NCBI GenBank assembly: GCA_964559945.1
Contig: CAZLJY010000002.1
Coordinates: 7,856 to 71,855, forward strand
Source of the DNA: an uncultured Gammaproteobacteria bacterium
GTDB lineage: Bacteria; Pseudomonadota; Gammaproteobacteria; Xanthomonadales; SZUA-38
DNA: 64,000 nucleotides
Direction: 5' to 3'
Shown here: piece by piece, positions 7,869-34,100 of the stretch
Numbering within the stretch: the stretch's first letter is position 1
Layout: each line of letters begins with the position of its first letter
The notes under the pieces: generated by a model
Seen by the model: only the letters and a program-made list of their open reading frames with translations
The model's database searches: none
Told to the model about the DNA's origin: nothing
Program-made: the position numbers and the translations under genes

Positions 7869-7906
7869 GCCTGCTTGTGTCCTAAGTCCTTGATGCCATC
7901 ACTATT

Positions 7907-8587
7907 TTACACACGCTGGAGTCGATAACCCTGCTGATAGATGCTACGCAACTCCCAACCTTGATCTTTCGTCCATCCCAATTTTTTCCTAAGCCTACTG
8001 GCATGGGTATCCACCGTTCGGGTTTCCACTGCGGTGCTCAGACCCCAGACCTCAAACATGATGCGTTCCCGAGTCACCACCACATTAAGGTTTTCTACCA
8101 GCGTGATAGCCATTTGAAATTCTCTACGAGTGAGAGCAACATTTTCCCCACCAACCGTAACCTTCTCACTGCGCCGGTCGAACTCATGCTCCCCTTCGCG
8201 CACCAACCACGCAGGCCCTTTGCTGCCGGTGCGTCGGACCAATGCATTGGTCCGCGCCATAAGCACAGTGCGGTCGAACGGTTTTGTGAGATAGTCATCG
8301 GCGCCGCTGTCCAGAGCCTCTACCAGGTCGGCATTGGCGTCACGGCCGGTTAGAAACAACACAGGCAACTGGGATTGCTGACTGTCGCGGATCCATTTAA
8401 GAACCCCAAGCCCCTGGACGTCTGGCAGCTCCCAATCCAGGATTGCTAGCCGGTAGTCGCGATGCAGAAACCCATTAACGAAGGATTTTGAGGTGGCAAA
8501 CAGGTCCACCTCAAATCCGGCGTCCTCAAGCCAGGCTTTCACCAGTTCTCCCTGGTGCTGATCATCCTCAAGGTACGCTATTAACAT
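7907..8587 (-). CDS. OmpR/PhoB-family DNA-binding response regulator
   Basis: The receiver is MLIAYLEDDQ...LAILDWELPD...LTKPF. The winged-helix region is LTRREFQMAITLVEN...VDTHASRLRKKL...GYRL. Confidence 0.9.
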   Translation of the reverse strand: MLIAYLEDDQHQGELVKAWLEDAGFEVDLFATSKSFVNGFLHRDYRLAILDWELPDVQGLGVLKWIRDSQQSQLPVLFLTGRDANADLVEALDSGADDYLTKPFDRTVLMARTNALVRRTGSKGPAWLVREGEHEFDRRSEKVTVGGENVALTRREFQMAITLVENLNVVVTRERIMFEVWGLSTAVETRTVDTHASRLRKKLGWTKDQGWELRSIYQQGYRLQRV

Positions 8588-8979: not shown

Positions 8980-10149
8980 ATGCGACATTTTTCCTTATTT
9001 ATTATGACGTTAGGGCTTTTCGCCTTATTCCAAGCTGGGGCCCAAGAACAGGCCATTAATATTGGCCGTATTCAGCTGTATCCGACCTTCGGAGCAGCCC
9101 TGGGTTATGACGATAACTTAGCGTTAAGCCGGTCAAACCCGATTAGTTCACGGTATCGTTTGCTCGAGCCTGGTATCCGCGCTGATTTGAACGGCCAAAA
9201 CCATCAATTTCGCGCCCAATATCGGATTTCCGATGCGAGCTTCTCGGACTCCGCAAGAGACGATTTCACCGATCAGTTTTTGGATTTGAGTTGGCGATAT
9301 ACCCCTACCATTCGATCTGATCTGACGCTCAGCGCTCGCTGGCACGAATCCCATGATCGTCGCGGCGAGGGCCTGCGAGAGAATTTCATTAATACCCTTG
9401 ATCGAGATGTTGATGAATTTCGGGATACGGGACTGGGATTGCGCTATACCCATGGCGCACCTGGCGCCCGAGGGCGGCTGGCGTTGTTTGCCGACGCCGG
9501 CGACAAACGATATGACAATAACCGAGATTTCACCGCTGCCGGCGACTATGACAGCTTCCGCTATGGCGGAGAATTCGGCTGGCGGGTAGGCGCCAGAACA
9601 ACCGCCATTTTACAGGCCAGTCAGACCGACATTAATTATGACCTCAGCGATCGCGATGCAGAACAACGGCAGCTGGCCGTAGGTGTGCTGTGGGATGGCG
9701 CTCCCCAATCCGATGCGCGGATTTTACTGGGTCGATTGAGTCGCTCACCAGATAGCGCCGATCAGCCAGATTTCTCCGGGGCATTTTGGGAAGCAGCTGT
9801 GAACTGGCGACCGGTAGAACGCTCCACATTTAGCCTAGTGACCAACCGTTCGACGGATGAAGCCTTCGGTAACGCGAGCTTCTTGGTTCGCGAGAGAATT
9901 GCACTGGGCTGGCGCCACCAGTGGCATGGCCGGCTTAGCACCGCACTGGATGTTGCGTTTGCCGACGAGAGCTTAAGACCAAGCGGGCGTGAGGATGACA
10001 TTGTGCAATATGGTGTTAGCGTCGATTACACCTTCAGACGTTGGCTATTGCTCGGGGCTGGTCTGCGCCATGTAGAGCGAGACTCTAACAACACTTTTTT
10101 TGACTACAGCCGAAATGAAATCTTGTTATCGGCCCAGCTAAGCCTGTAG
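8980..10149 (+). CDS. Outer-membrane beta-barrel protein (putative beta-barrel porin-2 / BBP2-like family)
   Basis: The signal peptide is MRHFSLFIMTLGLFALFQAGAQE. LYPTFGAALGYDDNL is an N-terminal strand motif typical of this family. Alternating aromatic/polar strands run to the C-terminus (NEILLSAQLSL). Confidence 0.65.
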   Translation: MRHFSLFIMTLGLFALFQAGAQEQAINIGRIQLYPTFGAALGYDDNLALSRSNPISSRYRLLEPGIRADLNGQNHQFRAQYRISDASFSDSARDDFTDQFLDLSWRYTPTIRSDLTLSARWHESHDRRGEGLRENFINTLDRDVDEFRDTGLGLRYTHGAPGARGRLALFADAGDKRYDNNRDFTAAGDYDSFRYGGEFGWRVGARTTAILQASQTDINYDLSDRDAEQRQLAVGVLWDGAPQSDARILLGRLSRSPDSADQPDFSGAFWEAAVNWRPVERSTFSLVTNRSTDEAFGNASFLVRERIALGWRHQWHGRLSTALDVAFADESLRPSGREDDIVQYGVSVDYTFRRWLLLGAGLRHVERDSNNTFFDYSRNEILLSAQLSL

Positions 10150-10167: not shown

Positions 10168-13100
10168 ATGACGACTATTAAAAGGAATACAGGCACCTCC
10201 GCACTGCTTATGGCAGGCGGCTTGCTGCTAGGGACCGTCGCAGGCGCACTGGAAATACCGCCACCAGGGGACCCGTTTTTCATTCAAACCAACTCATCGG
10301 ACGCCGCCATTGGTCTTGGCGACTGGTACACCGCCAGCAACAACGGCGTTGGCGGTGGCTTTCACTACGTAGGCATATTCGTGCCCTGTGGCTGGCCGGT
10401 GGATCAAGAAATCCATATCGACTTGTTCAGTCCGGAAATGAATACCAACAATCCGGTTACCGATGAACCCAATAGCGGTGGATTAGGCACAACTACCTTT
10501 GAATTGTTTGGGGTTGGGACAACCGTCGCTAGCCCAGCAACCCCGGCGCCTGGTGCCGCGGGTTCGCTGTTGTCCATAGATTACCCGCCCAGCAGTGATC
10601 CCGAGCAGTGGATTCGGGCATTCACCCTGGGTGATGACGCTGGCGCAACGGCTCCCATCAGCTGCGGCCAATATGTGCTGCGCATTGGCTCAACCCAAGA
10701 TGATCAAAATGCTTGGCGACTGCGGGTAGGGTTCGACGATGACAACAACCCTAACAATGCATTTCCTCCCAACTGGGATGATTTAGACGGCGTTCCTGGG
10801 ACCGATGACGAACTGCTGGTGGGGCTTTATCAATACGCCTTTCAACAGAACTCCGGCGGTGTGCAGTGCAACACCTTATTTGAGTTTGTCGAGGAAAACT
10901 CTAGCTGCCCTAGTTCTCCGCCAACTCCTCCAGACAGTAATGTCTGCTTTAACAACTTTGACATGGACAACAACACCAGAGTCCGTTATTACCCGCCTCT
11001 GACCCCCCTGGACCCGAACGGGCTGATTGGAGGCGTTCCAGGCACCCTGTCAGGTAACGGTGTGTGGAATGGGGGAACTCAAACCACCCGAGGCGGTGAC
11101 GTCATTACCAACCCTGATGTGGGTTGGTGGGGCATTGTGACCTGCTTGTCTAACAACAATCAGCTGGCCCAAGATGCCCAGGAGAATGTTCCTCAATTTA
11201 ATCAAATCCCCCCTATTCCGGTGATTGAATTGTTGAAAGATGATGGAACAGTGGTTGCCAATGCTGGCGATACGCTGACCTACAACATCCGCTTTGAGAA
11301 CATTTCTGACGACGACCTACTGCCCGGCGCAGCCCGCAATTTGCAGTTAGTGGACACGCTACCGTCGGACGTGAGCTATGTATCTTGCGCCATCAACGCA
11401 CCCTTCAGCGGGGTTTGTAGCGAGTCCGGTGGAGTGGTGACTTATGACATCACTGAGACTGTATTGGCGGGAGACGTTGGAACCTTAAGCCTAGTGGTAA
11501 CGATTGACCCAGCGGCAACGTTTCCGTTTACCAACAACATCGTTGCGACCTACACCGATAGCTGGGAAGTAGGCACCTATACTGCCGAAGATGACGAAAC
11601 CACCTTTAGCGCGACGCCCCTTAGCCTGGTCAAAACCGTCGACACCCCCCTTGCCGCAGTGGGCGATGAGGTCAACTACACCTACACGATCACCAATATC
11701 TCTCCAGACCCGGTAGTGGTCATTGATCTGGTTGACGACAAAATTGGTACGTTCCAATTTCCCGAGCAATTTCCCAATGCAGTTGCGCTGTATGACTTCT
11801 CTCAAGGCCCAGACCCGGACATCGTACGCGATACCTCGGGATTTTTGTCTACGCTAGATTTAACCGTGGAAGCGCCGCCGGTGGTCTATGAACTGAACCC
11901 TGAGCGGATCGACATCAACACCTCCAACCGGATATCTAACGCCACCGACAACAATAAAATTGTTAGTGAATGCCAGGCCGAAGGCCAATTTGCTCTGGAA
12001 GCCTGGGTGCAGCCTCTTGGTGTTTTACAAGGTGGACCAGCACGAATTGTTCATTCATCCTTAGACGATGCCAATATCAATTTCAGCCTCTATCAAGACA
12101 ACGATCAATACGGTTTCTTCATTCGCACGCCGTCCAATACCGATCCAGTTAATGACATCGTACTCAATACCGCCCCGAGTTCTGTCAGCACCGACCTGAC
12201 CCATCTTTTGGTCGTGGTCTCGGCGACTGGCGATGCAACGCTATATCAAGATGGTGTGGTGTCAGCATCCGCTAACGTGGGCGCAACCAACAACTTCAGT
12301 AACTGGGATACCAGTTGGGATTTTGGCCTCGGCAATCAGTTCTCAGCGGCGCCAACATCAAGCGCGCAAGATTGGCAGGGGCAAATCTACAAAACTGCCA
12401 TTTACTGTGATGAAATTCGCCCAGAAGACGCGGGCAACCTCTTTAACCTTGGCAGTGAAAACGACCCTAGCGGCAACCGATTGCTAGAGCCCGGTGAGCA
12501 GGTGGTGCTGACTGCCCCCTACACAATTACCACCAGCGATTTCCCCGGCCCAGTGGTCAACATCGCTGAGGTGCGTGGCCTTACTGCCGGCGATCTTAGC
12601 TTTACCGTCACAGACACTGAGTCCGTCGACATCGATACCCAAGCGCTGGAGCTGACCAAGCAATCGGATGCCACCGGCGAGGTGGTCCCTGGGCAAATTA
12701 TCACTTACACCTTGACCGTCACCAATACCGACAGCATCACCCACACCGGTCTAACCGTGGTAGATCCCTTGCCTGCTGGCACGAGCTACGTCCCACAGTC
12801 CACCCAGGTTCAAGGACGGCGCGCACAAGTCATCGACTATCGGGACAACTTTAACGACACGCCAGTCACCTATTCTGGATCCAGTGGGGCGACACCCTGG
12901 GCCGGAAGCTGGATCGAGCTGGATAACGGTGCCAGCGATGGCCCGGCCGCAGGTGAGGTATTCATAAGCGGCGGCGAACTCCAGTTTGATCAGCCCGATT
13001 CTGCCGACGATACGGACTTTGACACCCTCCAACGGGCGGCTGATCTGAGCGGTGCCAGCAGCGCAAACCTCACCTTTGACTTCGACTTCGATGGCGCAAC

Positions 13101-16100
13101 CGAAGACTGTGATGGCGCTCTGGGCGCTGATGATTGCCTGTTTGCGGAAGCGTCCAATGACGGCATCAATTGGACCACTCTGGATACACTCGGTGGCGAG
13201 CCTGACAACAACAATGGCACCCGCACCGTTGCTATACCTGCCGGCCTTGTGGGCGCCACCACCCAAATTCGTTTTAGAGCTCTGGGCTTTCGCGGTGGCG
13301 ATGAAAACGTCAGCGTCGATAATGTTGTGGTTTCTGCATCGCTGACCGGGCCGGTGAGCTTAGACAATGTTCCGGGCGGCGCTAACGATTTGGACGATGG
13401 GGTACCCCAGGATCTGGTCACAACAAACGACAACCTGATTCTCAACCCGAATGAATCCATGACGGTTACCTTTCAAGTGCAAGTGGATGATCCGCTGAAC
13501 TCCAATATCGTGGCCATTCGTAATTTGGCGTCCGCTGACTCAGACCAAGGCACCCCCGCGGTGGCTGAAGTGCTGGATCCGGTGCGACCGCTGGGTGGGC
13601 AGATTGGCGATTCTGTTTGGCTGGATGCAGATGCTGATGGCATCTTCGATTTAGGTGAAGCGGGTCTTGCCAATGTTGTGGTAGAACTCATTGACCCCGC
13701 CGATGGATCAGTCATTGCAACCACAACGACCGACCTCACGGGCCGCTATCTATTCCCCAACTTGCCTGCTGGCGACTACGATGTAAGAGTCGACACAAGC
13801 ACCCTACCTGCTGGGCTGGTTGCCGGCCCCGGCAACAACAACCCCGCCGGTACGTTTACCATCACTGGCGCTGAACAATTCAACAATGCCGATTTCGGTT
13901 ATGTCACCACTCCTGGCGACGCCATCATCGGCGACAGCGTATTTTCTGACACCGACGGGGACGGCCTGCAGGACCCTGGCGAGGCCGGTTTTGGCGGCGT
14001 AACCGTAGAGTTGCGCGATGCCCTCACCGGTGCGGTGATTGCCACCACCACCACTGGCCCAGACGGTCGCTATCTGTTCACTGGAGTCGCCCCAGGCACC
14101 TATGTAGTGAACGTTACGGATACGGGCAACGTCCTGGCCAACGCCAGCAGCACCACCGGTGGCAATGAGTCTGCGCCGGTATCAGTAGGTGCAGGGGACG
14201 TCATCACCGATGTTGACTTCGGTTATCTGGATCCGTTTACCTTCAGTCTGACCGACGACGTGTGGTTTGATGCAGACGGCAATGGCCTTCGTACCAGTAA
14301 CGAAAGCGGTATCAGCGGGGTTAGCGTGAGTCTGCTTGACGCCGCTGGCAACGTGGTTGCCACCACCATCAGCGGAGCCGACGGTTCAGTGACATTCTCT
14401 GGTTTGCCCAACGGCGACTATCAACTGGCTCTTACAGACACCCAGGGCCGGCTGACTGGCTTTGGCGCCACAACCCCTGGCGCGGTCAATCGCTCGGCGA
14501 CTAACACCATTAACAACAGCGACGCCAGTGGTCGCAACTTCGGCTTCAATCTGCCCGGACTCGTCGGCAACGAAGTGTTTTCCGACGCCAACGGCAACGG
14601 CATCTTGGATCCTGGCGAAGTATTGATTCCGGGGGTTGATCTATCCCTGTTCGTCGACGACGGCGATGGTGTGTTCGATTCCACTGTCGATACATTGGTC
14701 AATTCAGACCAAACCGACTCCGGCGGTATCTACGACTTCCGCGGGTTGGCGTTCTCCCAGTACTTCGTCTCTCTGGATACTACCCAGCCAGAGTTGGCCG
14801 GTGCTACCTTGACCACCGGCGACTCACAAACTGGTGGTAACGCTGGCGGCGCGCAAATCGATGTCACCTTAAGCGGTGGTAACGGCGGCGTATTAACCGC
14901 CGATTTCGGATTCCTGAATTCCGCCCTGCCAGATCTCAGCGGCAATGTCTTTGAAGATCTGGACCGAGACGGCGTAGACGATGGCGTAGCCGAAGCGGGC
15001 TTCGCGGGCGTCACCATCGAACTGATTGCTGCAGGTCCTGATGGTGTGCTGGGAAGCGCCGATGACCTGGTGGTGGCTACCGCTCTCACCGACGCCAATG
15101 GCGACTATGAGTTTGTCGACGTACCGCCAGGCGACTACCGCCTTGCTGTCACCGATCGCAGCCAGGTTCTCACTGACTTTGGATTGACCAGTGGCTTAGA
15201 TCAGCTGGATCTGACAGTCGCCAACAGCGATATCAACGATCTAGACTTTGGCTATGCCCGAGCCTTTGGCGATGCCAGCCTGGGAGACTTGGTGTGGCTG
15301 GATGCCAATGGCAATGGCATCAACGAAGCGGGAGAAAACGGTATACCCGGCGTCACCCTGAACCTTTTTGACGCCGGCCCAGACGGCGTCATCGGCGGCG
15401 GTGATGACGTGTTGATTGCCAACACGGTTACCGATCAATTGGGCGGATTTGATTTCAAGAACCTGCCAGCGGGTCGCTACTACGTAGATGTTGACGACAG
15501 CACGATTCCACCAGGCTTAACTTTGAGCCCTGGCCTTACGGACCCCAGTGCTGTGGTTGCTCTGGGCGCCGGCGATAACAACGACACCTTGGAATTCGGT
15601 TACCGTCCAACCCCTGGCACCGCCTATATCGGCGATCAGGTTTGGATCGACGCTAACGGCAATGGTGAATTTGATCCTGGTGAAGCTGGCCTTCCTGGGG
15701 TTACCGTTGACCTGGTTGGTGCCGGGGCGGATGGCCAGTTAGGCACCGCAGACGACCTTACCCTTAGCACCGTCACCGATGGCGATGGAACCTACGCCTT
15801 CGACGGTCTGCCCCCAGACACCTACGCAGTCACGGTGAACACTGGCAGCCTGCCCGCAGGCTTCAATACCACGCCAACCAACGCTCAGGAAACCTACCAG
15901 CTGGTCGCTGACGCGGATACGGCCTACGTGCTGCTGGACTGGGGTTTTCAGCCCCAAACGCCATTGGCGTCATTGGGCGACCGAGTCTTCATCGACAACG
16001 ACGGCGATGGTGTACAAGATGCCGATGAGAGTGGACTTGGCGGGCTCACTATTGACTTACTGGGCCCCGGTCCAGACGGCATCTTCGGTACCGCAGATGA

Positions 16101-19100
16101 TGTGGTACTAGCCTCTACTGTGACCGACGGCAACGGGGACTACGATTTCACCGGACTGAATCCCGGCGATTATCGTGTCTCATTGACCGATACCGCAGGC
16201 GTATTGACAGGGCTCAACCCCACGACCGTCAACCCAGGCACAGTAACTTTAGCTGCCGGACAGGATTTTGATGACGCCGACTTTGGCTTCTTCCCAGCCT
16301 CCAGCTTAGGCTCGGTGGGCGATCTGGTGTTCCACGACGTCAATGGCGATGGCGTTCGCCAACCCAATGAATCAGGCATCGAGTCAGTGCTAGTGGAGCT
16401 ATGGTTGGACACCGACAACGACGGCGTGATTACGCCAGGCGTCGATAACCTGGTGCGCAGCACTCGCACCGACGTTAACGGTGAGTACGAATTCGGTGGG
16501 GTTACGCCGGAAGACTACCTGGTGCGCCCAGCGCCTCAGAACTTCCAATCAGGCGGCGTCCTGGAGGGCACCAATGCCACTTCTGGCACCGCAGGTAGCA
16601 ACAACAACGCTCAGGCTATACCGCTGCCACTATCCGTTGACTCGGGCAACCTGAATCCCAACTTCGCCGACTTTGGCGTCAATGCTCCGGCGCCCTTCAG
16701 CCTGGCAGGCACGGTGTTTGAAGACATCAGCAACGATGGCTTTGACCAACCCGGTGAACCTGATGTTGGCGGCGTTACCGTTCTGCTGTTTAGAGATCTG
16801 GACGGCGACGGTTTGCTGGGCCCCAATGATCCGGTTTTCGGCATGGCGACCACCGACGCCGACGGCGACTACCTGTTCGATAATCTGCCCCCTGGGGACT
16901 ACTTGGTCAGCACTGACGTGATCGGCTCGCGCCTTGCTGGCTACTTCCAGACCACCCAGACGGTATCACGCGGAGTGGAACCGGTTACCGGCAATAGCGG
17001 CGACACCATCACAGAAGTTGACTTCGGCTTTTTCAATGGTGGCCTCACAACAACGCCAGTGACCCTGTCCTATTTCCGCGCGACACCGGAAAAAGGTGGG
17101 CTTCGTGTCCAGTTCGCCACGGCAACAGAGACTGGCAATATCGGTTTTGCCATCCACCATCGCAGCGCCAATGGCGCCATCAAGCGGGCCGCTCCTATGA
17201 TGGCCTCCAAGGTGGTTGATTCGACCCAATGGCAATCTTACGAGACCTTCCTGACTGGAAGTTCGGCGACCAAATTGTGGCTCAGCGATATTGACACCCG
17301 CGGGGTAGAAACCCTGCACGGGCCGTTCGAATTGAATCGGGACTACGGCAATAGCCAGCCTCCGCAGCCCATCAACTGGCAAGCGATTCGCGAACAAAAT
17401 TCCCAGACGCTTTTGGCCAAGACTGCTCGCAAGGGCGATAGCAACACCTCATCGGTAGATCTCACCATCACCGAGTCTGGGATCGCTAGAGTTAGCGCAG
17501 ACCAACTCACCAGTGCTGGATTAGACCTAACCGCTGTCAGCGGCTCCGAATTGGCACTGAGTGTGAATAACGAGCATGTAGCGGCTCGGGTCAGCACTGA
17601 TGGACTGTTCGGATCAGGCGACTTTGTCGAATTCCTGGCCGAAACTCGCGATAGCCTTTATGGCTCTGACAATGTCTACCAATTGACTGTCAATCCGGTT
17701 GCCGCTCAGCGGGTGCAGGTTAACAGCGAGTTGCCGCAGAACCTGGATCCTCAAATCACCGAAACTGCGCTGGTGACATTAGCGGAAAATAACGAGTACA
17801 GCTTTGCCTCCCCCACCGGCGACCCCTGGTTTATGGAAGGTATCCTCGCCTTCACCGATGAAGTTGAGGCCAGTTATGACCTCTCATTGGACGGTTACTC
17901 TGGTGGCAGTGCCAATTTAACCGTTGATCTGTGGGGCGTTACCGACCTCCCCGAGAGCCCGGATCACCATATTCAGGTTCTGGTTAACGGCCAACAGGTC
18001 AGCGAGCTATTTCTAGACGGTTTGAGCCAGGGCCAAATCAACGTTCAGGTACCCCAGACGGAGCTGGTTGACGGCATCAACACCGTCACCGTTCGATTGC
18101 CAGCAGATACTGGCGCTCAGTTTGACCTGGTTAACGTTGAAGCCATATCAATGAGCTACCAGCGGGCACCAAGAATCGATGGCGGAACCGGCAACGTGGG
18201 CGTAAGCAATAACGCATCGCCACTGAGTCTCCATCCCGACACTCTGTTCGCCAGTTCTTTTGAGGTCTTGCCAGGAGCGTCATTCTCGGTCTCCGGTCTG
18301 ACCAGTAACGATGCGGTGGTTTACGCCGAAACCGACGCAGGTCCGGTCTGGATGCAAAACGCTCGGACTTCCGCTAACGGCTCTGACATCACCCTGGACG
18401 TGCCAGGGGTGCCCGGAGCTAATGGGTTTGTCATTAGCCAACTGGATTCACTGGTAGAAGTCTCCGTCAGCCCGACCCGGTTGAACAACGAGCTTCTCAG
18501 TGATCCTGCGGACTACCTAATGATTGCTCACCCGGTGTTTGTAGATGCCATCGAACCGCTGGCTCAATTCCACCGCGATCGGGGCTTAACCGTTCGGGTA
18601 ATCAACGTGAACGACATTTACGCCCAATATTCAGCGGCCCAGATTGATGCTAACGCCATCGACAGTTTTATCGCTGATGCTGTTCCGGCACTGGATACCC
18701 GCTTCGTGTTGCTGGTGGGTGGTGATTCCTACGATTACCACAATTACCTTGAGATGGGATCACTGAGCTTTATCCCATCGCTGTACGGCCAGGTCCATGC
18801 AGTGGTTCGCTATGCACCCCTAGATGCTTTGTACGCCGATATCGACGACGACCAAGTGCCTGACGTGGCCCTTGGCCGATTCCCAGTGCGCACTGTTCAA
18901 GAGTTAAACTTCATGATCAACAAGACCGTACAGTACGCGTCCAAAACGTATTCTCGTCAGGCAGTGTTTGCCGCCGACGAAGCGGAACCGTTAACACCCT
19001 TCGGCGCCATCAGCGACGACGTGATCGATAGTTTGCTCAGCAACTGGTCAGTAACCCAAAGCTATTTGGACAACGTATCTCCGGCCCAAGCCACCCAGGA

Positions 19101-19548
19101 TATTCTGGGCGCCATCAACAGTGGTGTTGCGCTAACTAACTACTTCGGCCACTCCGGATTCACCGAATGGGGACGAACCGATCGACTGCTCACTTCAAAC
19201 GACGTGGATACACTCAGCAATGTCGGCTTGCCCACCGTGGTCAATCAGTGGGGTTGCTGGAATGCTTACTACGTATCACCGTTTGCCGACACGCTGGCTC
19301 ATCGCTTCTTGATTGGCGGCGAACACGGGGCTGCCGCGATCCTCGGCCCAGTATCCCTAACCCGGCTGTCGTCCGAACAACTACTAAGCAACTTGAGTTT
19401 CGCCGAGATGGTCAGCGCTGGACAATCCGTCGGCCAATCGATCGTGAATGGCAAACAAGAACTAGCAGCTAATCACGAGAACCGCGAAGACGTTGTTCTG
19501 GGCTTCACCCTGCTAGGTGACCCGGCAATTCAGATAGAAAACGAATGA
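10168..19548 (+). CDS. Giant (3126 aa) secreted multidomain surface protein with a C-terminal peptidase C25 (gingipain-like) domain
   Basis: AAAGGA lies 8 nt upstream of the ATG and there is an 18-nt gap from the barrel gene. The signal peptide is [17 protein letters not shown]. DUF11/TIGR01451-type modules are present ([14 protein letters not shown]..., [15 protein letters not shown]..., [15 protein letters not shown]...LPAGTSY). It also has a LamG-like domain, 10 SdrD-B-like repeats and a C25 domain. Confidence 0.9.
   Translation: [3126 protein letters not shown]
11781..12460 (+). other. LamG / concanavalin-A-like lectin domain within the 3126-aa protein
   Basis: [26 protein letters not shown]...FALEAWVQP...ARIVHSS...[18 protein letters not shown]...[15 protein letters not shown] follows the Laminin_G_3 pattern. 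Confidence 0.6.
13594..17043 (+). repeat. Ten tandem SdrD-B-like (Cna-B fold, Ca-binding) repeats of about 100-125 aa
   Basis: The recurring motif is GDxVW/FxDxNGNGxxDxGExGxxGVTVxL...DGxYxFxxLxPGxYxV, e.g. [30 protein letters not shown]...[18 protein letters not shown]. Confidence 0.8.
18500..19545 (+). other. Peptidase C25 (gingipain-like) catalytic domain with an intact His/Cys dyad
   Basis: The domain begins [37 protein letters not shown] and continues [15 protein letters not shown]...ALGRFPVRT. The candidate catalytic His is in NYFGHSG (codon 19150-19152). The candidate Cys is in [10 protein letters not shown] (19255-19257), 35 residues later. The domain ends LLGDPAIQ. Confidence 0.75.
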
Positions 19549-22034: not shown

Positions 22035-22196
22035 CAGGACTTCCTTGGCTCGGAGAAACAAGCGGGAAGTATTCCACAGCAAAACAATTCACGTCATAGG
22101 AAATTTATCCCACTGAATGATCATGCATAGAAAGTACTGCGATGGATTGATGGAGCCGACCCCAGCGATCGCTGAAGCCGGCGCCAATATTTAGGT

Positions 22197-25100
22197 TCAA
22201 CAGTCTCGACGGATCAGGCGACCTCTAGCAACCAACATCAGTAACATCATCATTATCAACAATGCCCAAGTATTGGTGGTAGGAATGGTCAACGGACGCA
22301 AGGTGGTAGTGATCACCGTGGGATCACTATTGTTACCCGGACCATCACCCTCAGGGTCGGCGTCTATGCCGTTTTGGGAGATATCGCTGACAGCACGGGA
22401 GGCGCCGATAGCCGTGGCAGTGGCGGTATTGGCATAGGGCGGCGCGGAGTCGCGGGCAAAGACCAAAACGGACAGCCGGATGAGGCCACTTTCACCCACA
22501 GCCAGAGAGTCCGTTCCAGCCAATAAATTGACGTCCGAATCGCCGTCATAGTTATCGTTAACCGTGAGCTCTGCCGAGAAAAGGTTTGTCACCTCAAAGG
22601 TCGCCGGTGCTGGGAATGTCGATACCAGGTCATCAACCACCTGAATCTGATCCAAGTCTACTTGGCCGGTGTTAAACACCCTCAGCTGGTAGCTAACCAG
22701 CGCGCTGTTGTCTGGCAACACCGCAGTGTAACCAGGCTGCGGCAACTCAACGTTGGCCAGATTTTTAGCCAGTCCAATCTCACCTAAGCCGGCGCCTCCA
22801 AGGGGGACGACGGTTGGGTCGCCGCCAACAACAGAGCCTGGATCATCGGAACTCACTGGGTCGGTCTCGTCCGAGTCCACCACTGCTTGGTTAATGATGG
22901 AACTCACGTCCCCTGGCAATGGGTCGTTTATCCGCACTTGGAAGGCCACAGTTTGTGTGGTGTTGGCAGCCATAGAGCCAAGGTTTACCGCAATACTGGT
23001 TTGCCCTGCACCGTTGCCGGTGATGACAGTGCCTGCACTGGTTATCACACTGCCATTAATTAACAGCGTATTGATATCCGGTGTGTCACTTAAGGTGACA
23101 TTGTTCGCCGTGCCGTTACCCACGTTTCGAATGGTCAACAAGTAGTCTATTCGATCACCACTGTTGTTCAGGCCATCAGCGTTGTCATCAAAGATGTTGA
23201 TCGCCGCCTTGCTTAACTCAAGGATGGGGTCCGCATCAATCGGCGTGCCGGTCGGGTCGTCATCGGTGGGTGAGTCCGGATCGTCCGTGGGCTCATCAGG
23301 GATGGTCGGGCCGGTGACCAGCCCTTGGTTGAACACCTGAGAGGCGTTGTTGATCACTGGGCTATTAATCGTCACGTCAAAACTGACCGTCACGCTGGCG
23401 CCACCAGCGAGGGTACCCACATTAATCTCGACGTCAGTATCCGCGCCGCCATTGCCGCGAGTCACGATTCCCTGACTAGTCTGCACGCTGCCAGGCACCA
23501 ATGTGGTGTTAACGTCAGGCGTATCGGTGAACACAATTCCGGACGCCCCAGCGTTACCACTGTTTGAAATGGTCACAATGTAGGTCAGCGTGTCACCCGG
23601 TGAGCCAACGCTATTGTTGTCCGCATCAACACTTAAGGTATCGGTTTTACTGGCCTCAATAACCGGATTAGAAGTCACTGGCGTGTCGGTGGTGTCGTCA
23701 TCGTCCGGGGTGTCCGGATCATCAGAGGGTGCAACCGGCGCGTTATCACTGAATACCACCGCTTGGTTGGATACCGAGGTGACATCGGCAGGAAGTGGAC
23801 TGTTAATGGTCACGTCAAACGACAGCGAGACCGTATTACCACCAGCGATATCGCCGAAATCTACAGCCACATCAATATCCCCAGGGGTATTGCCCTGAGT
23901 CACCGTTCCCTGAGAGGTCACCACTGAGCCAACCACTAAGGTGACGTTAGGATCCAGGTTATCGTTGGCAAAGGTGCTTATGGCCGCCTGGTTGCCGTCG
24001 TTGTTGACAGTAACAATATAAGTCAGGGTGTCGCCGGGAGAAGGCGAACCACTGCCATCGGCATCAACTCTTAGGATGTCAGTTTTGAGTACCTCCAGAT
24101 CCGGCGCAGCAACAATCGGCACCTCGGTCGGATCTCCGTTCGGAGCATCATCGGGATCATCCGTGGGCACTGTCGGCAGTTCGTTACTACCTACCAAGCC
24201 TTGGTTAACCAGTTCAGTCACACCCGCCGGCAGCGGCGAGTTCACGGTGGTCTGGTAACTGATGGATACTGAACTTGCGCCGCTCAGCCCACCAATATCG
24301 ATGGTGATAGTGCTATCACCCGCACCGTTACCGGTAACCACGGTGCCCGCGGAGCTTGCCACACTGCCGTTGACTAAGGTGGAGTTAATGTCCGGTATGT
24401 CCGTGTACTGAACGCCGGTAGCACCACCGTTACCGATATTGTCAATAACAATTGTGTAGAGCAGCGTATCGCCGGGACTGACAGCCCCGTTGTTATCGGC
24501 ATCGTTCTGCAGAGCAACAGCTTTGCTCGCTTCAATGATTGGCGCTGAGGTCACCGGTGTTGGCGTTGGATCATCTTCATCAGGGCTGTCCGGGTCATCC
24601 GTCGGCTCGGTGGGCTGCTGATCAGAGTCAACAGCGCCCTGGTTGGACAGTAACGTTACGCCCGCTGGCAATGGGTTGTTGATCGTGACATCAAAGGTAA
24701 TGGTCACACTACCTCCCCCGCCAGGGATGCCGCCTATAGCTACCGCCACCTGGGTATCACCCGCGGTGTTGCCAAGGGTGACTGTTCCCATGGTTGTTGC
24801 CACCGAGCCGGCTACTAGCGTGGTATTGGCATCGGGGATGTCTGTGAACTGAACCCCGGACGCGCCGCCGTTGCCGCCATTGAGCACCGTCACGGTGTAT
24901 CGCAGCGTGTCACCTGGCGATGCAATCGTGTCGCCGTCGGCATCCACCAACAAACTGTCGGCTTTAAAGGCTTCCAGGTTGGTGGCCGAGGTTAGCGGTA
25001 CCACGGTGGGATCGTCATCTGGCGGACCATCCAAATCGTTGGAAGGCTCCGCTGGTAGGCCATCGCCACTGACAAAGGCTTGGTTCACCAACTGGCTGAC

Positions 25101-28100
25101 GCCAGCGGGCAGCGGATTGGGAATATCCACCTGGTAACCGACAGTGACGGACGCACCGCCCCCTGGCAATGTGCCAACGTCTACCGAGATCGCGGTATCG
25201 CCCGCGGTGTTGCCGATGGTGACTAAACCTGCGGTAGATATCACCGAGCCGGCGATAAAGGTGCCATTGGCATCGGGAGTATCGGTGATCACCACTCCTG
25301 TGGCTGCCGCATTGCCGATGTTGATAGCAGTCAGCGTATAGCTGAGGGTGTCGCCCGGCGACGGTACACCATTGCCATCGGCATCTGTCAGTAGCGTGAC
25401 CGATTTATCCAACTCCAAGATCGGCGTCGCGGTTACCGGCGTTGGGGTGGGTTCATCCTCAGACCCGCCATCTGGATCATCCGTTGGCTCATCTGGCAGC
25501 TGATCGCTGCTGACAAAACCCTGGTTGACCACCTGGATCACACCTGCCGGCAGAGGATTGTTGATCGTCACATCAAACGTAATGGTGACCTGAGCACCAC
25601 CACCTAAGGAACCGATATCAACACTGACGTCGGTGTCGCCGGCGCCATTACCCATCAATACCGTACCCAGGGTCGTCACCACAGAGCCTGGCACCAGTTG
25701 GGTATTCGCTCCGGGCGTATCATTGAAGGCCAGGCCAGTTAATCCAACATTACCAACGTTGTCGATCAACACCGTATAGCGCAGTACATCACCCGGTGAG
25801 GGCACACTGTCAAGGTCGTTGTCTGTCAGCAAGGCATCGGACTTGAACGCCTCCAGCAGCGGATCAGTCGTCACCGGTGTACCAGTAGGATCCCCGCCCG
25901 GTAAGGTGTCTGGATCGTCCGTATCAATGGGCGGTAATTCAGCGGAGCTCACGGTGGCCTGGTTGGCTACCATGGTGGTACCGGCCGGTAGCGGATTGTC
26001 TACCACAACCTCGAAGGTCACCACCGCAGTCTCGCCATTACCCGGAATCACTCCGGTATCCACTTCCACGTTTACGTCGCCTGGGGTATTACCCAACACA
26101 ACGCTGCCGCGACTGGTCATCACACTGCCCACATTAAGGGCCACATTGGGGTCTAAGTTGTCGTTGACAAAGGTGGCTGTAGCGCCCTGATTACCCGTGT
26201 TAGTGATAGTGATGGTGTACAGCAGGGTATCACCGGGAGAAGCAAAGCCGTCGCCATCGGCATCGACCAACAGGGCATCGGTTTTGATCGCCGACAGCAC
26301 AGGGGTTGCGGTGAGCGGCGTGTCCGTCGGGTCATCGTCCATTGGCGTATCTGGGTCGTTGGTGGGCTCATCGGGTAATTCGTTGCTACCCACAACACCC
26401 TGGTTACTAAGCTGGGTGACACCCGCCGCCAAGGGGTCATCGATCAACACATCAAACGTGATAGTGCGACTAGCACCACCACCAGGGATGGTGTCCAGAT
26501 TCACGCTGATGGTCGTATCACCGGCGGTATTACCGGTCACCACAGTACCCAATGGCGCAACCTGTACTGAGCCAACGATCAATGCGCTGTTGCTGTCTGG
26601 CATATCGTTGAAGGTCACACCCGTCGCCGCAATGTTGCCGGTGTTCGTAATGTTGACGGTGTAGCGCAGAGTGTCACCTGGGGACGGGACGGTATCGCCA
26701 TCGGCGTCCACCAGTAATACATCAGCCTTGTCTGCCTCCAAAATTGGCACCGCTGTTACCGGTGTGTCGGTAGGATCGTTGGGATCTGCGTCATCCGGGT
26801 CGTCAGTGGGCACAACCGGGGTTTGATCACTACCCACCAATCCTTGGTTAGCCACTGTGGTAACGCCTGCCGGCAATGGATTATTGATAGTGACGTTGAA
26901 GCTGATCGTGACGCTATCGCCGCCACCTAAAAGGGTGCCAACGTTAACCGTGATCGGTGGCGTGCCGGCGTTACCACCGGTAATCGTTCCCCGACTGGTA
27001 GTGACCGTTCCAGCCACCAGCGTGGTATTGGCATCTGGTGTATCGGTAAAGGTCACACCGCTGGCAGCCTGGTTGCCGCTGTTGGTAAGGACCACGGTAT
27101 ACAGCAGCTCATCGCCCGGCGACGGTATGCTGTTGCCATCGTTATCAAGGAACAACGAATCGGTCTTAGTGGCGCTGATGATAGGCGTACCTACCAGCGG
27201 GGTGATATTCGCGTCGTCGTCCGGACCGGTGCTTGGATCATCCGTTGGCTCGGACGGCAGCTCGTTGGAATCAACCCGCCCCTGGTTAACCACTTGGGTC
27301 ACACCCAATGGCAGAGGGTTGTTGATAGTGACATCAAACACAATGTCCACACTACCGCCCTGACCAGCCAGAATTCCGATATCGACGGTGACCGGAGGGA
27401 CGCCGGCGTTACCACCGGTAATGGTGCCCTGGGTGGTTGTGACAGACCCGCTAACCAAGGTGGTGTTGGCATCCGGAGTATCTACAAACATGACACCAGA
27501 CGCGTCCTGATTACCACTGTTGACCACATTGATGGTATAGCGAAGGGTGTCACCCGGAGACGCCACACTGTTGCCGTCCGCATCAATCAACAGGGCATCG
27601 CTCTTGCTCGCTTCGATAACCGGTTCGGCAATGAGCGGAGTCACCGTCGGATCATCATCCGGCGCTGTATCTGGATCGTCGGTGGGTTCGTCGGCCAACT
27701 CATTGGAGCCAACCACACCCTGGTTTGACACTTGAGTGACGCCATCGGATAGCGGGTTGTCGACTATCACATCGAAGGTGATCGTGACAGTGGCCCCGCC
27801 ACCCATCATGGTGCCTATATCAATGTTAATGGGTGGCGCGCCCGCGTTTCCTCCAGTGACAGTTCCCTGGGTAGTGGTAACCGAACCTGCCACGAGCGTC
27901 GTGTTGGCATCGGGGGTATCAGTAAACGTCACTCCACTAGCAGCGCCGTTGCCGCTATTGGTGATCACTACCGTATAGCGCAGCGTGTCGCCCGGTGAGG
28001 GTGAACTACTTGCATCAGCGTCCACCAATACCGCATCGGTTTTGCTAGCTTCCAAAATGGGGTTGGAATTAACCGGAATCACGGTGGGGTCATCATCGCC

Positions 28101-31100
28101 TACCGGGCCCGGATCGTCGGTGACCACATCGGGGACTTGCGCACTGGACACAACACCCTGGTTCGTCAGCGTGTTGATACCGGCAGGAAGTGGGTCATTG
28201 ACTGTGGTGCGGTAAGTAATGGTGGCAGTGCCGCCGCCAGCGGCCAATGCACCCAACGCGACCTCTACAGGAGGGGTGCCGGTATTGCCGTCGGTAATTG
28301 TGCCTTGAGTTGTGGTTACCGTTCCGGCAACCAAGGTGGAATTCACATCAGGGGTATCGGTAAATACCACGTTGGTAGCGGACGCACCGCCAGTGTTGGT
28401 AATGACAATGCTATAGCTCAGCACATCGCCAGGGGTTACATCGCCCGAGCTGTCGACGTCATCAAATAGCACGCCGGTTTTGCTGGCACTGAGTTCGGGC
28501 AAATTGATATTTTCTGAATCAGTGGCGGTATCGGTTCGATCCTCATCCGGTGCGCCGGGCATGGTAGTGCCACTGAGATTGGCAACGTTCACCACCGGCA
28601 GCGCTGGCAGCGGATCGGCAAACATGACTCGGGCGGTAAAGGACAAAGTCTCACCCACTTCCAACGACGTATCAGGCAAGCTGCCTGCAGGGTCAGAGGA
28701 AAATCGCAGAGTGGTTTGGCCCGCTGCTGGTGTATTGACCAAAATCTGCCCAATGAAGCCAGCAGGCACCGTATCGATAATGGCGGTTGCCAGATCCCAG
28801 TTGGTTTCGCTAAGCACATCATCCAGAACCAAATCGTAGGCAGGGGCGGTGCCCGTGTTGGTGATATCGAACTGAAGCGTGGCGATCAGTCCGTTGACCT
28901 CGGCGAGGGTTTTATCCACTGCCAGGTTAGGCTCAACCACATCAATGTCTGCGGTAGCCGAGTCCGTCACCGTGCCAGTGGGTCCTTCAAACTCCAGAGT
29001 TGAGGTATTGATGAGTAGGTCACCGGATTCGTTGGTGTCATCGTCGGCCGGTACTGAAGGGCCAACATTGACCACCACACCGCACACCTGCAGCACCAAC
29101 TGATCATCAACCGTTACCGCGTTGTCGGTGGTGGGATTGGTGACATCACCCAAATTAAAGGTGGCCGTGTCGTTGCCCACAGGCGCGAGGTCGTCGGAAA
29201 TCACCGCGGTGAACCCATTGGTCACGCCCAGCATTCCTGAACCAAATACCGTGGCACTGGTGAGTTCAAGAACCCCCTCGTTGCCGTTAGCGCTGCCCGA
29301 GGGCAGTGTGTCACTCACAATCACTTGCTGGGTGACGCCTTGGGGGAAGGTGACTGTGGTGTGGTAGCACACCTCCTCACCAATGGTTGCGTCAAACAGG
29401 AATGGATCGCCAAAACTTTGTCCGGTATCCGGGTTGCTGGTTGAGAATACGGTCTTCTCAATGCTCGGCTCGTCGACAGTGAATTGACCGGTGTCGGCAT
29501 CGTTACCGTCACCGTTTTCATCACCGGCACCACCGGGGGTCGAATCGAACTGCAGTGACGCGTTGTTGACGTAGCTATCGCCGGAAATCACCGTTGGATC
29601 AACGGTGACGTCATAGGTGATGGTGCAAACGTCCCCTAAGTCCAGCTGGGTAATGGTGAACAATACGGCAGGGTCGCCGGTACCGTCAGCCACAAAACCC
29701 TGGCAAGCGGCGCTGGATGTGAAGTTAGTTGGTGCACCGGAACCCAGTGGGTCGGGTAGTTGGTCAGTGATATCCAGATCATAGGCCACCGCGCTGGAAG
29801 CACCAGTATGGGAAATGACCAGGGTAAAGGTCAGCGTATCGCTGCCGCTGACCTCAACTAAGGTATCGGGCGTCTTGTTGATTTGCAGCAACGGCTGAAC
29901 AATGTCTACATCCACCGAATCCATTAACGGCATCTGGGGTGTGCCGCCGATATCAAAGTCCAGACTAGCCTGATTACGCGCATTGTCGGTACCGGGGTTG
30001 CCGGCAACATTGCGCACCCGGGCAACGATAGTGAATTCAATTTGGTCATCTGCCGGCAGCGTTGCGTCGGTGGCAACGTTAACCACGTTGCCGAGATCCC
30101 ACAGGAAGAAGTCGTCGGTACCGTCCAGCGGCGCAGTGTCAGATATCGCATCGGGTGAAGCACCCAACGCTAAGCCGCTGCCGATGGTGATGTCAGCGCC
30201 AATACGAGACAGGGTGGCTGAAACCAGTTCGAAGGTCGCTGACGGCGTGCTGCCCGGGAACGGCAGTTGGTCGCTGATGACAGCGTTTTCTAATGTGCCG
30301 TTGGGAAGATCAAGAACCAAGCGATAGGTCACCTCTTCACCGATGGTCAGATCAGGCTCCGGCCCTAACACCCCATCGACATCCGGCGTATTGATATCGC
30401 CGGAGGAGACAAACAGTTTGTCCAGACCCGGGCCAGAGATATCCACCATAAACTCAGCCATATCTCCGTAGCTACGTCGTTGTTCATCTGCCTCAGAGGC
30501 ATCAGTACTGAAGTAGTCAAGATCGGCGACGTTCATGATCGTGTCACCCAAGGTCGCGGCCACATTAATTTGGGCCTGATAGGTGAAACGGCAGACATCG
30601 GCCACGGGTAGGCTGTCAAAACCAATGCGCAATCCCACACCATTGGGATCAGACTCGTCCAGCAGATCCGGTGCGCCGGTGCAGGTTGCGCCAGAAGGCG
30701 CGCCGGCGGCAGCCAAGGTGCCCGTCACGTAGGTCAACTCTGCGGGCAATTGGTCAGCCAACAACACATCGATGGCAGCGGCATTGGAGATTCCGGTGTG
30801 GCCAATGTCCAAGGTGTAGGTAATGGTATCGCCGGCATCGCCAGAGGTGACCGAACCACTCTTTGCCACCATCAAGTCAGGTTCAGCGATTTCCACATCC
30901 GCCGAGGCAACCACGTCGCTGAAGGTATCGGACGACACAATCATGTTATTGCGAACGGGCAATCCCGTGACGCCGTTGGCCGCTATATCGGCGACCCGAG
31001 CTTGAACCAGGAAAGTGATTTGGTTGTCTGCAGCAACCGTTGCCGGCGAATCGTTGGCATTAGTCAAATTGCCAAAATCTAAAATTAGCTGGTTATTGAG

Positions 31101-34100
31101 GGTGTCGCCGTTGGTGTCATTGACGGTTTGCAGCGGTGGGTCGTTGTCCACGGTAATTTCGCTGCCGATGGTGATGGCAGATACCGATAGGTATTCCAGC
31201 ACCGTCGGCGCAATGGGAAGTTCGTCGCTAATCATCACGTTGGCGGCAGATCCATCTGGGATGTTGACGGTCAGCTCGTAAGTGATCACCTCGCCAATGG
31301 TCACGTCCACAATGGCCGGGTCAAAATTCCCATTGTCCGTGGTTTGGGTGCGATTGGTGACCGTTTTGATTGCCATCACTGGGGCCACCATAAAGCTGGC
31401 AGAACCCTGGGCGTCATAGTCGTCTGAAGCACCCTGCCCGTCCCCAACTCCCGCTGCACCCGATCGCTCGGAGTCAAATTCGTCGATAAATGGTGACAGA
31501 TTCGTGTTGTCACCCGGTAGCGACGTCCATTCGGTACTGGCGGTATTCACAATATTAGTGCCGATGGGGGTGGCAGCATCAACTTGAACGTCAAAGACGA
31601 TCTGACAACTGCTGCCTTTGGTAAACGTATCCCAACTGGCCGTAATAACCCCACCCGCCTCGGCAGGTCCAGCATCGGGGTTATCCGCGCAAGCTTGCAG
31701 TGTCGGCGGCGACATGACCGTTAGGAATGGGGGCAGCGCATCGCTTAACTCAACATCAAAGGCATCGGGACGGTTTGCACCTCCAGTGACGGCCACCGTA
31801 ATGGTCACCTGGGTAACATCACCCGAATCACCGATGGCAGGACTAAAGGCTTTGCCGATGGTGACCACGGGCTCGCGAATCCCCACGTTATCCGCATTGT
31901 CGTTAGCCAAGGTGGTGTTGTCCTGGCGCCATTGGGCATTGTTGTTTCGGTTGCTGCCGCTGTTGGCGTTGGTGGAATCCAACAGCACAACTTCGTACTC
32001 AATAACAATATCGGTACTTCCCGCACCATTGCTGCTGGGAACCACAACGGTGCCGAAGTCAAAAACGGCTTGGCGGGCCACATCTCGAGCGTTAACGCCG
32101 CTGTTGGTAATAAAGGGGTTGTCGGTGGCTGAGTCGGTGTTGCCATCATTGGTACAGCCAGCGTCCAACGCCACGCCATTCGCCGGGGTCACCGTCGCAG
32201 TGCCGGTGTTCACTGAGGTACAGTCAACAAAGGCCAGCGAGGTATCTAAAATGTCCACCAATGTGATATCGGTAGAGGTTCCTTCTGGCAACGTAACAGT
32301 GGTGCGATAGCGCACGATCGAACCAATAGTTACCTCATTTTCTGTGCCGTCAGCGTCCAAACCCAAGGCTGCTTCCGTTGGGCTTACGTTGACCAATTCC
32401 TTGTTCACCAAGACTTCAGTAATGGTGGCGTTGGCCTCATCAACCACTTCGGGGAAACGATCCGTTGAGCCGTCACCGGGCGCCCAAGTGACGCCGCTTT
32501 CGTTGGTGATGGTGCTACCCGGCTCCACGCTGTCAGGCAGCGTGCAGGAAATCTCGATCAAAATCCGGTTGTTGCCATTGAGATCGGTTCCCGGAGCCAA
32601 GGCTGCGCCGCCCACCGAGGCCCCGTTAGTACCGTCATCGTCAAAGGTGATTCCCGCGCCGAACAAATCCCCAGAAAAACTGGTGTAACGCGTATCCGTG
32701 CCATCGATGGCACCCGCTGTGCCGCCATTGTCCAGGAATACACGAGGCTGACCGGCATCATCGTTAATAGCGCACGATAGCAAGCTGCCGCCAGCAGCAT
32801 CATCGGTAGCGATTACATCAAAGGCGCTACCGGTGCCAACGTTTTCCAGGGTAATCAGGTACGTCAGCACATCCGCAGCATCGGCATCGCTGATATCCCC
32901 ATCGCTGATTGTTGCATCGGAGGTTGCGTTGGTGCTGCTGACGATTTGCTTATCCAAAGTCAATTCTGGCGCACCAACAATAAATAACGCGCCGGTGTCA
33001 GAGGCTGACGGAGACTGATTGCCATCGCCGTTGACATTCAAGATATTGCTCAAGCTCAGCAAATCGGTAAACGCAGCAGGCTGCACCGTCATAGCGATAT
33101 CCAACTGAAGCACAACGGGCGCCACCGCTTCCGACACTTCATCCCAGGTAAAGACCCAAGAGTTGGGTGAATCGGGCGACGGTACTGTGCCACCGCCTGA
33201 ATCTGCCACAATGCTGGTCAGACCGACGTCCAGTCCGCCGCTTTCGAGATTGTGCGCTGGACCATAGTTGATGGTCGTTGCAGCAATAGACCCGGCTGGC
33301 TGACTAACCGTGGGGGCTGTGCCGTATTGTTCGGCATCAAAAATGGGAATCGGCCAAAAGTCTATCCACTGCAGGTTAACAATATCGGCTGCCTCCAAGG
33401 TCATGGTCAATCGATACACCACGTCCTCTCCAACCTGGTAAGAGACACCATTGGCTGGGCTACTGATCACCGTTTTGGTCAAGTCAAAACCAGCCACGTT
33501 AACCGTCGCGCCGGAGCCTTCGGTACAGCCCGGTAGTGCCGGTCCGCCCGCCAAACCCTGCACGGCATAGGTCGTGCTCACCGTGTTGGGTAAGCTATCG
33601 TTAATTCTGAGTGGTACCGGCGTTGCAGGGGTTGAGCCAAACCGACTCACATAAGTTTGATTGACGGTGGTGTCGTAGGTGAGTTGTCCTGTCGTACCTA
33701 AGCCAAGCTGATTGTCGCCAGTGAGCGGCAGCACACCCACGGTAAGATCATCAAAATCTAAAGTGATGACTTCCTCGGTGCCGTTCGGACCGGTTTGGGT
33801 AGTGACCGTAAAATCGGTGTTCTCCACAAGTGGAGTGCCATTTAACACTAAGGTTGAGCGGTCCAAGGTCAAGCCATCAGGCACCGTATCAACCAACACC
33901 AGATCAGTGAGTTCCGCAAAATCGGAGACTTGGTAGTCGATGGTGTAACTCACCGTGTCGCCGGGCACAACGAACCCACCCGGCGCGCCCTTCTGAACCG
34001 AAAAATGTCGGGCCACCAGCGTATCGTCGGTTTGGGTGGCGGCAGGAACAAAAATATCGCTGCCTTCAAATTGGGCGAGAAAACTGGCTGTGTTGGGAGG

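Follow-up and report, generated by a model that had tools for sequence, protein, structure and literature searches.

Why should an adhesin-like protein from a gammaproteobacterium end in a cysteine peptidase of family C25? To our knowledge, experimental work on C25 peptidases has been confined almost wholly to Bacteroidota, namely to the gingipains, which are virulence factors, and PorU, the sortase of the T9SS (type IX secretion system). The question is raised by a 64,000-nucleotide stretch of contig CAZLJY010000002.1 (assembly GCA_964559945.1; positions 7,856 to 71,855), hereafter the window, which encodes a protein of 3126 amino acids (aa), hereafter the giant. A second, independent metagenome contig (ENA k141_263234) encodes an identical 3126-aa protein. 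A first-pass annotation of the window had recognized a gingipain-like C25 domain with an intact His/Cys dyad at the extreme C-terminus of this protein, and had pictured it as a protease borne outward by a stalk of calcium-binding repeats. Our analysis confirms that observation and partly supports its interpretation: the giant is a C25 enzyme of PorU-type architecture, not a PorU orthologue, whose enzyme module belongs to a large family of C-terminal modules. Coordinates of all features are collected in Table 1.

The C-terminal region matches the Pfam model PF01364 over positions 1–373 of 374 (E 2e-64; 218.6 bits, with the cut-off at 23), a sequence match far beyond chance. All six motifs quoted in the first-pass annotation are present between aa 2782 and 3120 (DYLMIAHP at aa 2782, LLVGGDSYDY at aa 2848, ALGRFPV at aa 2901, NYFGHSG at aa 2991, NQWGCWNAYY at aa 3026, and LLGDPA at aa 3115), and since the domain ends 9 residues ahead of the stop codon, its placement at the extreme C-terminus was correct. 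In phmmer alignments against the gingipain chains 1cvr_A and 4ief_B and the PorU chain 6za2_A, His2995 and Cys3030 occupy the catalytic positions (His211 and Cys244 of the gingipain RgpB), so that the claim of an intact dyad survives the alignment proposed as its check. The two residues are 35 apart, compared with 33 in RgpB, a similar spacing, as the annotation had stated. Together with their flanking glycines, they do not vary in any of 55 homologues (31–41% identity), and Cys3030 is the sole cysteine beyond aa 990, i.e., in the last ~2100 residues. The catalytic site is probably completed by Asp2937, judging from the alignments: Asp occupies this position in 52 of the 55 homologues, whereas the neighbouring Glu2938, which phmmer aligns with RgpB Glu152, is variable. 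The fold is caspase-like α/β. RgpB and the gingipain Kgp are matched over ~370–400 columns corresponding to the catalytic domain (Foldseek target-normalized TM score, TMt, 0.60–0.66; RgpB, E ~5e-19 and TMt 0.66; Kgp, E 5e-16), with the caspase-fold proteins separase and Csx29 further down the list. Model match, catalytic positions and fold all place the domain in family C25, as a predicted peptidase.

This catalytic domain is part of a larger conserved unit. When the homologue alignment was extended upstream, conservation began at PVTLSYF (aa 2297, nt 17056), and the profile matches the whole 830 aa; homologues also cover ~100% of a 635-aa query (aa 2492–3126). The AlphaFold2 (AF2) model of the module is confident (predicted local-distance difference test, pLDDT, 92.5; predicted TM score, pTM, 0.92) and comprises a series of β-sandwiches followed by the α/β catalytic domain. 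The first-pass annotation was right to place the catalytic domain in the last ~350 aa, but the conserved unit spans ~830 aa, and because it starts at aa 2297, head and stalk together measure ~2270 residues instead of the ~2700 estimated for the stalk. The sole stretch of the model with low confidence (aa 2682–2697, module residues 386–401; pLDDT 40–50) could, as modelled, serve as a flexible loop for latency or cleavage.

The best match of the module in the PDB is PorU (6ZA2; E 3e-27, 816 columns, query-normalized TM score, TMq, 0.48), over the whole module and with β domains N-terminal to the catalytic domain in both proteins. The comparison with PorU drawn in the first-pass annotation is thereby upheld, and the structure model that it had suggested as a check folds confidently and matches PorU, RgpB and Kgp. 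Among the enzyme families of NCBIfam, PorU and PorU2 are likewise the best matches, aligned from aa 2492 and 2432, respectively, to aa 3123, but both fall below their cut-offs (PorU, NF033707, 143.4 bits versus 420; PorU2, 108.5 versus 450). Since PorU is the best match over the whole module and yet misses the NCBIfam cut-off, we assign a PorU-type architecture without orthology; PorU orthology itself was rejected on the sub-threshold score and the missing T9SS C-terminal domain (CTD). Only Bacteroidota have the T9SS (PMC5445135), and family scans of the window's open reading frames (ORFs) revealed no T9SS genes in its 64 kb. The giant has no credible T9SS CTD: Por_Secre_tail reaches 24.5 bits (cut-off 23) with no individually significant stretch, and the match lies at aa 1378–1428, within the stalk and not at the C-terminus. 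As for the term 'gingipain-like', it fits the catalytic domain but not the rest of the module, which finds no gingipain counterpart; the S1 residue Asp163 of RgpB falls in a gap and the T9SS CTD is lacking. Membership among the gingipains was rejected because of this gap and the absence of an immunoglobulin-superfamily (IgSF) domain and CTD.

Upstream of the module, the giant has the layout of a fibrillar adhesin: a signal peptide, a terminal head of binding type, and an extended stalk made of Ig-like repeats in tandem. The AF2 model of the head with the first CLIPPER (DUF11) domain is confident (pLDDT 91.5). The head is weakly similar to adhesin heads and pilins (Sgo0707, SpaD; Foldseek) and has no Pfam family (window 10249–11217, + strand; aa 28–~350), and the first CLIPPER domain matches the CLIPPER structure 9IFR (TMt 0.69; PMC12617251). 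CLIPPER domains number three, and Pfam places more of them beyond the LamG-type domain. The combination of this head with one CLIPPER domain recurs in hundreds of Chloroflexi 'DUF11' proteins of 500–780 aa. Each of the ten SdrD_B repeats of the stalk carries a DxDxDG motif of calcium-binding type, which bears out the description of an adhesin-like giant with such repeats. Searches for an anchor (LPXTG, OmpA-like domain, CTERM tail or lipobox) found none, and at the end opposite the head, where a fibrillar adhesin has its anchor, the giant carries the enzyme module. With no recognized anchor at either end, a stalk-held protease is one of two possible orientations, and the C25 module could equally be the outer tip or the cell-proximal end. 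The stalk of the earlier picture is thus present, but the N-terminal anchoring was assumed, and the signal peptide is cleavable and lacks a lipobox.

The closest relatives of the gene come from metagenome-assembled genomes (MAGs) of Lysobacterales, with module identities of 58–84%; orthologues of 2958–3170 aa occur in the MAG loci L002–L005 and L015. A search of 1.84 billion representative proteins with the module profile returned 9052 clusters (50% identity) at E<=1e-30. In each of the 150 best hits, the module sits at the extreme C-terminus, in proteins of 791–5174 aa, behind N-terminal extensions that range from almost nil to >4000 residues. Likewise, the Cys motif lies 95–102 residues from the C-terminus in every matched C25 gene of 69 loci from genomes and metagenomes. 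Other giants with a terminal module include two from Gammaproteobacteria (L006, 2505 aa; L008, 2324 aa), one from Chloroflexi (L014, 3227 aa), L033 (4054 aa), protein P0218 (5174 aa) and many on metagenome contigs; P0033, a short homologue, comes with a signal peptide of its own. Members of this subfamily are known by NCBI annotation names only, and our literature searches turned up no study of it.

Tandem or close pairs of C25 genes (L022, 694–9260; L023, 2–12457; L026; L027; L029; L062, 3822–12448; L085) show that the family forms paralogues within genomes. A C25 enzyme can also be encoded separately from a stalk protein: in L009, a 1057-aa C25 gene product with its own signal peptide is encoded beside a divergent 3309-aa stalk giant. 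A similar two-gene system in L012 (1–10712; a 3168-aa giant and a 903-aa C25 gene) was rejected, as it is one gene, frameshifted in a GEVED domain; the break falls between ...WFDFDYDGVFETSEV and GEVEDY..., and reflects a pseudogene or an assembly error.

In the window, a β-barrel gene of the BBP2_2 family lies directly upstream of the giant gene and is its probable operon partner. BBP2_2 genes stand in the same place in L002, L003, L004 and L093 (63% identity for the L004 barrel); in NCBIfam, the window's barrel reaches 72.9 bits with EpsL, below the cut-off. As a general partner of the family, the barrel was rejected: it is limited to one lineage, for which we retain it as a lead, and the ORFs upstream in L005 and L011 are unrelated.

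We lean towards the reading that the giant is an active extracytoplasmic thiol peptidase, possibly a PorU-style transpeptidase, acting on proteins that the fibre reaches and perhaps docked at the barrel. The protein would be exported by Sec, and the module would then act outside the cytoplasm as a thiol endopeptidase, working independently of the T9SS; transpeptidation in the manner of PorU, via an acyl-enzyme on Cys3030, is conceivable. Head and stalk would bring protein substrates within its reach, and the barrel of the outer membrane, probably co-transcribed, might retain it at the cell surface.

Of this reading, the comparisons show the identity and fold of the domain, the conservation of its catalytic residues, the architecture across the family and the local gene order, whereas activity, location, substrate and the cell-facing end are inferred. 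Several points weigh against it. Neither end of the giant shows a lipobox, LPXTG motif, OmpA-like domain, CTD or CTERM tail, which makes cell association a guess. PorU binds the barrel PorV through its CTD (PMC10202324), and the giant has none. The upstream BBP2_2 gene is not shared by L005, L006, L008 or the wider family, and the reading names no route for a 3126-aa protein across the outer membrane. Tandem paralogues are at odds with a simple housekeeping role and with a single substrate alike. Finally, most family members are linked to lasso-peptide operons (see below), which hints at a more specific function.

Among the alternatives, the one that keeps most of its weight, if still a rather small share, is that the module acts in cis. 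In a single turnover, it would cleave its own polypeptide near the junction of stalk and module, and either release the adhesin or join the new C-terminus to a surface amine, e.g., on lipopolysaccharide (LPS), extracellular polysaccharide (EPS) or peptidoglycan. PorU performs exactly such chemistry in trans (PMC4560394, PMC10202324), and a self-processing enzyme would account for a module that is strictly C-terminal behind highly variable passengers, for a giant with no other anchor, and for the low-confidence loop at aa 2682–2697. However, no conserved cleavage motif is seen at the junction, only the domain start PVTLSxF being conserved, and the short family members are nearly free of passengers. 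Domain accretion between a signal peptide and a C-terminal enzyme would, moreover, give the same pattern with no action in cis.

A second alternative arises from the neighbourhood of the wider family, for which we clustered the neighbouring genes across 93 loci. A gene of the Asn-synthetase family, resembling lasso cyclases, is present in 52 of them. Among C25 genes that have 2 kb or more of sequence downstream, counted after de-duplication, 42 of 63 have a lasso-cyclase-like gene in their locus, and in 27 of those 42 it follows immediately in the same orientation, at a distance of -62 to +396 nt. It is followed by a small ORF, an HprK-like kinase, a PqqD protein and a B2 protein. In 34 loci, the small ORF is a conserved precursor ending in ...R-x-L-T-L/G-G-S-P-G-x-G-D-S-G.... 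By their NCBIfam matches, these genes form a lasso-peptide pathway. The NCBIfam models for B2 (67.9 bits versus a cut-off of 33) and the leader (NF033521; 25.7 versus 19) are exceeded, whereas the cyclase (best match, 250–410 bits versus 525) and the lasso PqqD chaperone (55 versus 80) remain below their cut-offs. In one locus (L025, 6182–9907), the stop codon of the C25 gene overlaps the next start by 4 nt, ahead of a complete lasso cluster; C25 genes directly upstream of such clusters, on the same strand, occur also in L008 (11947–14980), L012 (10913–15800), L046 (12514–15870) and ~50 other loci, and tandem C25 genes sometimes flank the cyclase gene. Our literature search found no paper linking lasso peptides with peptidase C25.

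The protease could accordingly work with a lasso peptide, be it as its target, its regulator, its isopeptidase or the enzyme that processes it; our bacterium would then have the cluster at another place in its genome. We regard this as unlikely for the giant, even though the linkage in the family is extensive (42 of 63 genes, 27 with the cyclase-like gene immediately downstream), the identity of the clusters is supported by the B2, leader, PqqD chaperone and cyclase (370 bits) matches, and a precursor family is conserved in 34 loci. Neither tblastn with the cyclase, kinase, PqqD and B2 proteins nor a scan for the precursor motif gave a hit in the 64-kb window; the flanks of L001–L006 and L015 are equally free of lasso genes and precursor motif, and Pfam scans of the large ORFs of the window returned housekeeping genes only and no lasso components. 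In a rough neighbour-joining tree, the clade of the window and a clade of further giants (L006, L047, L056) both stand apart from the lasso link. Besides, the enzymes that mature lasso peptides reside in the cytoplasm, while signal peptides are present on the C25 proteins. The lasso link is a notable, unexplained property of the family and not of the locus in the window.

The third alternative takes up a target proposed by the first-pass annotation, the neighbouring 4270-aa protein with an IPTL-CTERM-like tail: the module would be a PorU-like sortase that removes such tails from this and similar proteins. We consider this improbable, somewhat more so than a role with lasso peptides. The tail of the neighbour, ...LTIPTTNTWALLIMMMLLMLVARGRLIRRDC, consists of IPTT, a transmembrane (TM) helix and RGRLIRR, but has no match to the Pfam IPTL-CTERM model; its L001 orthologue just passes (21.6 bits). 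PorU as the closest structure speaks for a sortase. So does a giant with an IPTL-like tail 2.6 kb away in the window, and likewise in L001 and L002, and so does L010, where a protein with a strong IPTL-CTERM match (38 bits) is encoded ~6 kb away from the C25 gene; a full-text literature search found no paper naming a sorting enzyme for IPTL-CTERM. Yet a scan of all 93 loci for ORFs whose C-terminus combines the motif with a TM helix and a basic cluster, a co-occurrence test of local gene order only, placed CTERM-type proteins near the C25 gene in just four (the window, L001, L010 and, by eye, L002), three of them from the same lineage. The 4270-aa gene is absent from L005, L015 and L004; in L004, which retains barrel and C25 giant, the PrnB-like gene is followed directly by the extracytoplasmic-function (ECF) sigma factor gene, so that the gene is a variable insertion. 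Gene order thus leaves an enzyme–substrate relation unsupported, and we rejected a general link between the C25 enzyme and an IPTL-CTERM neighbour, which is no conserved neighbour and has a tail below Pfam detection. Tandem paralogues and hugely variable N-terminal extensions are also unlike a single-copy housekeeping sortase, and Chloroflexi and Acidobacteria have many members of the family irrespective of IPTL context.

Last, a non-catalytic structural or anchoring domain with a retained protease fold, as might be suspected from the gap at RgpB Asp163 and from a subfamily in which no member has a known experimental activity, is very improbable given that His, Cys and flanking glycines persist in all 55 homologues at 31–41% identity, that a lone Cys is kept in ~2100 residues, and that the acidic third residue is kept in 52 of 55.

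If the preferred reading of an active surface protease or transpeptidase is correct, diderms and monoderms would have an unstudied way to process or attach surface proteins, and non-T9SS relatives would become available for tracing the evolution of PorU chemistry. What makes this worth pursuing is a well-conserved PorU-like module in a gammaproteobacterium without T9SS hallmarks, fused to a fibrillar adhesin, and the same module recurring as the last part of thousands of proteins from Chloroflexi, Acidobacteria and Proteobacteria that otherwise differ. The operon link seen in other loci between lasso peptides and C25 genes would place both in a functional context that is new. More speculatively, and with a chance that we put no higher than that of self-processing, these proteins may form a widespread, T9SS-independent system of PorU type outside Bacteroidota, in which a self-carried C25 transpeptidase, possibly docked at a barrel, may covalently process or anchor its own protein or partners. 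In most lineages it would operate with a dedicated lasso peptide (core GGSPGxGDSG) that the neighbouring operon produces, and the window would represent a lasso-independent branch.

The remaining genes around the operon offer further points of comparison among the related loci. The PrnB-like gene and the overlapping aminotransferase gene, which together look like a small tryptophan-modifying operon, are kept downstream of the giant in L001–L004. Upstream of the barrel–giant pair, and divergent from it, lies a group of genes that may be its regulatory module; the OmpR-type regulator occupies the same place in L002–L004. The ECF sigma factor and kinase genes adjoin PrnB in L004, and L011 has a similar ECF sigma factor gene close to its C25 gene. 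Scanning the surroundings of the operon for promoters and terminators gave nothing informative.

Table 1. Features of the window around the C25 giant, with positions counted from the first nucleotide of the window.
Feature	Position	Strand	Basis or remark
OmpR-type regulator, 177-aa coiled-coil protein, 450-aa protein with no family, Ras/Roc GTPase (122 bits), hybrid histidine kinase	3936-8587	-	
Outer-membrane β-barrel, 389 aa, BBP2_2/EpsL-like	8980..10149	+	Pfam BBP2_2 E 4.8e-19; ends 18 nt before the giant gene
Whole gene of the giant, secreted fibrillar-adhesin-like protein ending in a C25 module	10168..19548	+	3126 aa, uninterrupted ORF
Signal peptide, Sec-type, aa 1-27 (...GTVAGA/LE), no lipobox Cys	10168..10248	+	Read in translation; cleavage site inferred
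All-β head, aa 28-~350, and first CLIPPER/DUF11 domain, ~aa 353-480	10249..11607	+	AF2 and Foldseek
Laminin_G_3 domain (ConA-like lectin/glucanase), aa 602-752	11971..12423	+	Pfam E 1.3e-10
Stalk of ten SdrD_B-type repeats, aa ~1145-2290	13600..17037	+	Pfam SdrD_B E 3e-143, 10 stretches
Conserved PorU-like module, aa 2297-3126: N-terminal β-sandwich domains and C25 domain	17056..19545	+	AF2, Foldseek, homologue alignment
Low-confidence loop between β domains, just upstream of the catalytic domain	18211-18258	+	AF2
Peptidase_C25 catalytic domain, aa 2783-3122	18514..19533	+	Pfam PF01364 and Foldseek
Asp2937, candidate third catalytic acid	18976..18978	+	Immediately precedes the residue aligned with RgpB Glu152
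Catalytic His2995 (NYFGHSG)	19150..19152	+	Aligned with RgpB His211 and PorU His
Catalytic Cys3030 (NQWGCWN)	19255..19257	+	Aligned with RgpB Cys244 and PorU Cys
PrnB-like gene overlapping a class-V aminotransferase/kynureninase-like gene	19747-22082	-	PrnB family (monodechloroaminopyrrolnitrin synthase), 600 bits
4270-aa CLIPPER-repeat giant with IPTL-CTERM-like tail	22197..35009	-	14 DUF11 (CLIPPER) repeats and RrgB-type isopeptide domains
ECF sigma factor (TIGR02999) overlapping a Ser/Thr kinase-TPR gene	35494-38195	-	Beside the 4270-aa giant

Set against known systems, the giant is closest to PorU. Both are Sec-exported multidomain C25 enzymes, the likeness spans essentially the whole 830-aa module, and the His/Cys dyads align. 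Identity over the module is, however, only 15%, and unlike PorU, the module sits behind a head and stalk of ~2270 residues. PorU also has ~370 residues after its catalytic domain, including a retained CTD by which it stays on PorV (PMC11285876, PMC10202324), and these are missing from the giant. The hosts differ as well, PorU serving the T9SS of Bacteroidota and the giant coming from a Lysobacterales-like gammaproteobacterium.

The gingipains RgpB and Kgp (1CVR, 4IEF, 4RBM) have in common with the giant the catalytic fold, the equivalents of His211 and Cys244, and an acidic residue near Glu152; identity is 17–20%, and they match nothing beyond the catalytic domain. Asp163, the S1 residue of RgpB in a family specific for Arg or Lys, has no aligned counterpart in the giant. 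In gingipains, the catalytic domain is followed by IgSF domain and CTD, and also by haemagglutinin domains, whereas the giant ends 9 residues past LLGDP; adhesin-like domains are N-terminal in the giant and C-terminal in gingipains.

With fibrillar adhesins built from CLIPPER or SdrD_B domains, such as staphylococcal SdrD and B9T28_05395 of A. silvestris, the giant shares secretion and an N-terminal head followed by a stalk of repeats. SdrD ends in an LPXTG anchor. B9T28_05395 ends in an OmpA-like anchor (PMC12617251). The giant differs from both in ending in an enzyme module. Its nearest counterparts are the proteins annotated as 'C25 family cysteine peptidase' in Chloroflexi, Acidobacteria and Proteobacteria. 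Most of these are 1000–1700 aa long and linked to lasso genes by operon, unlike the clade of the window, and all carry the same module at their C-terminus, with full coverage and 31–42% identity.

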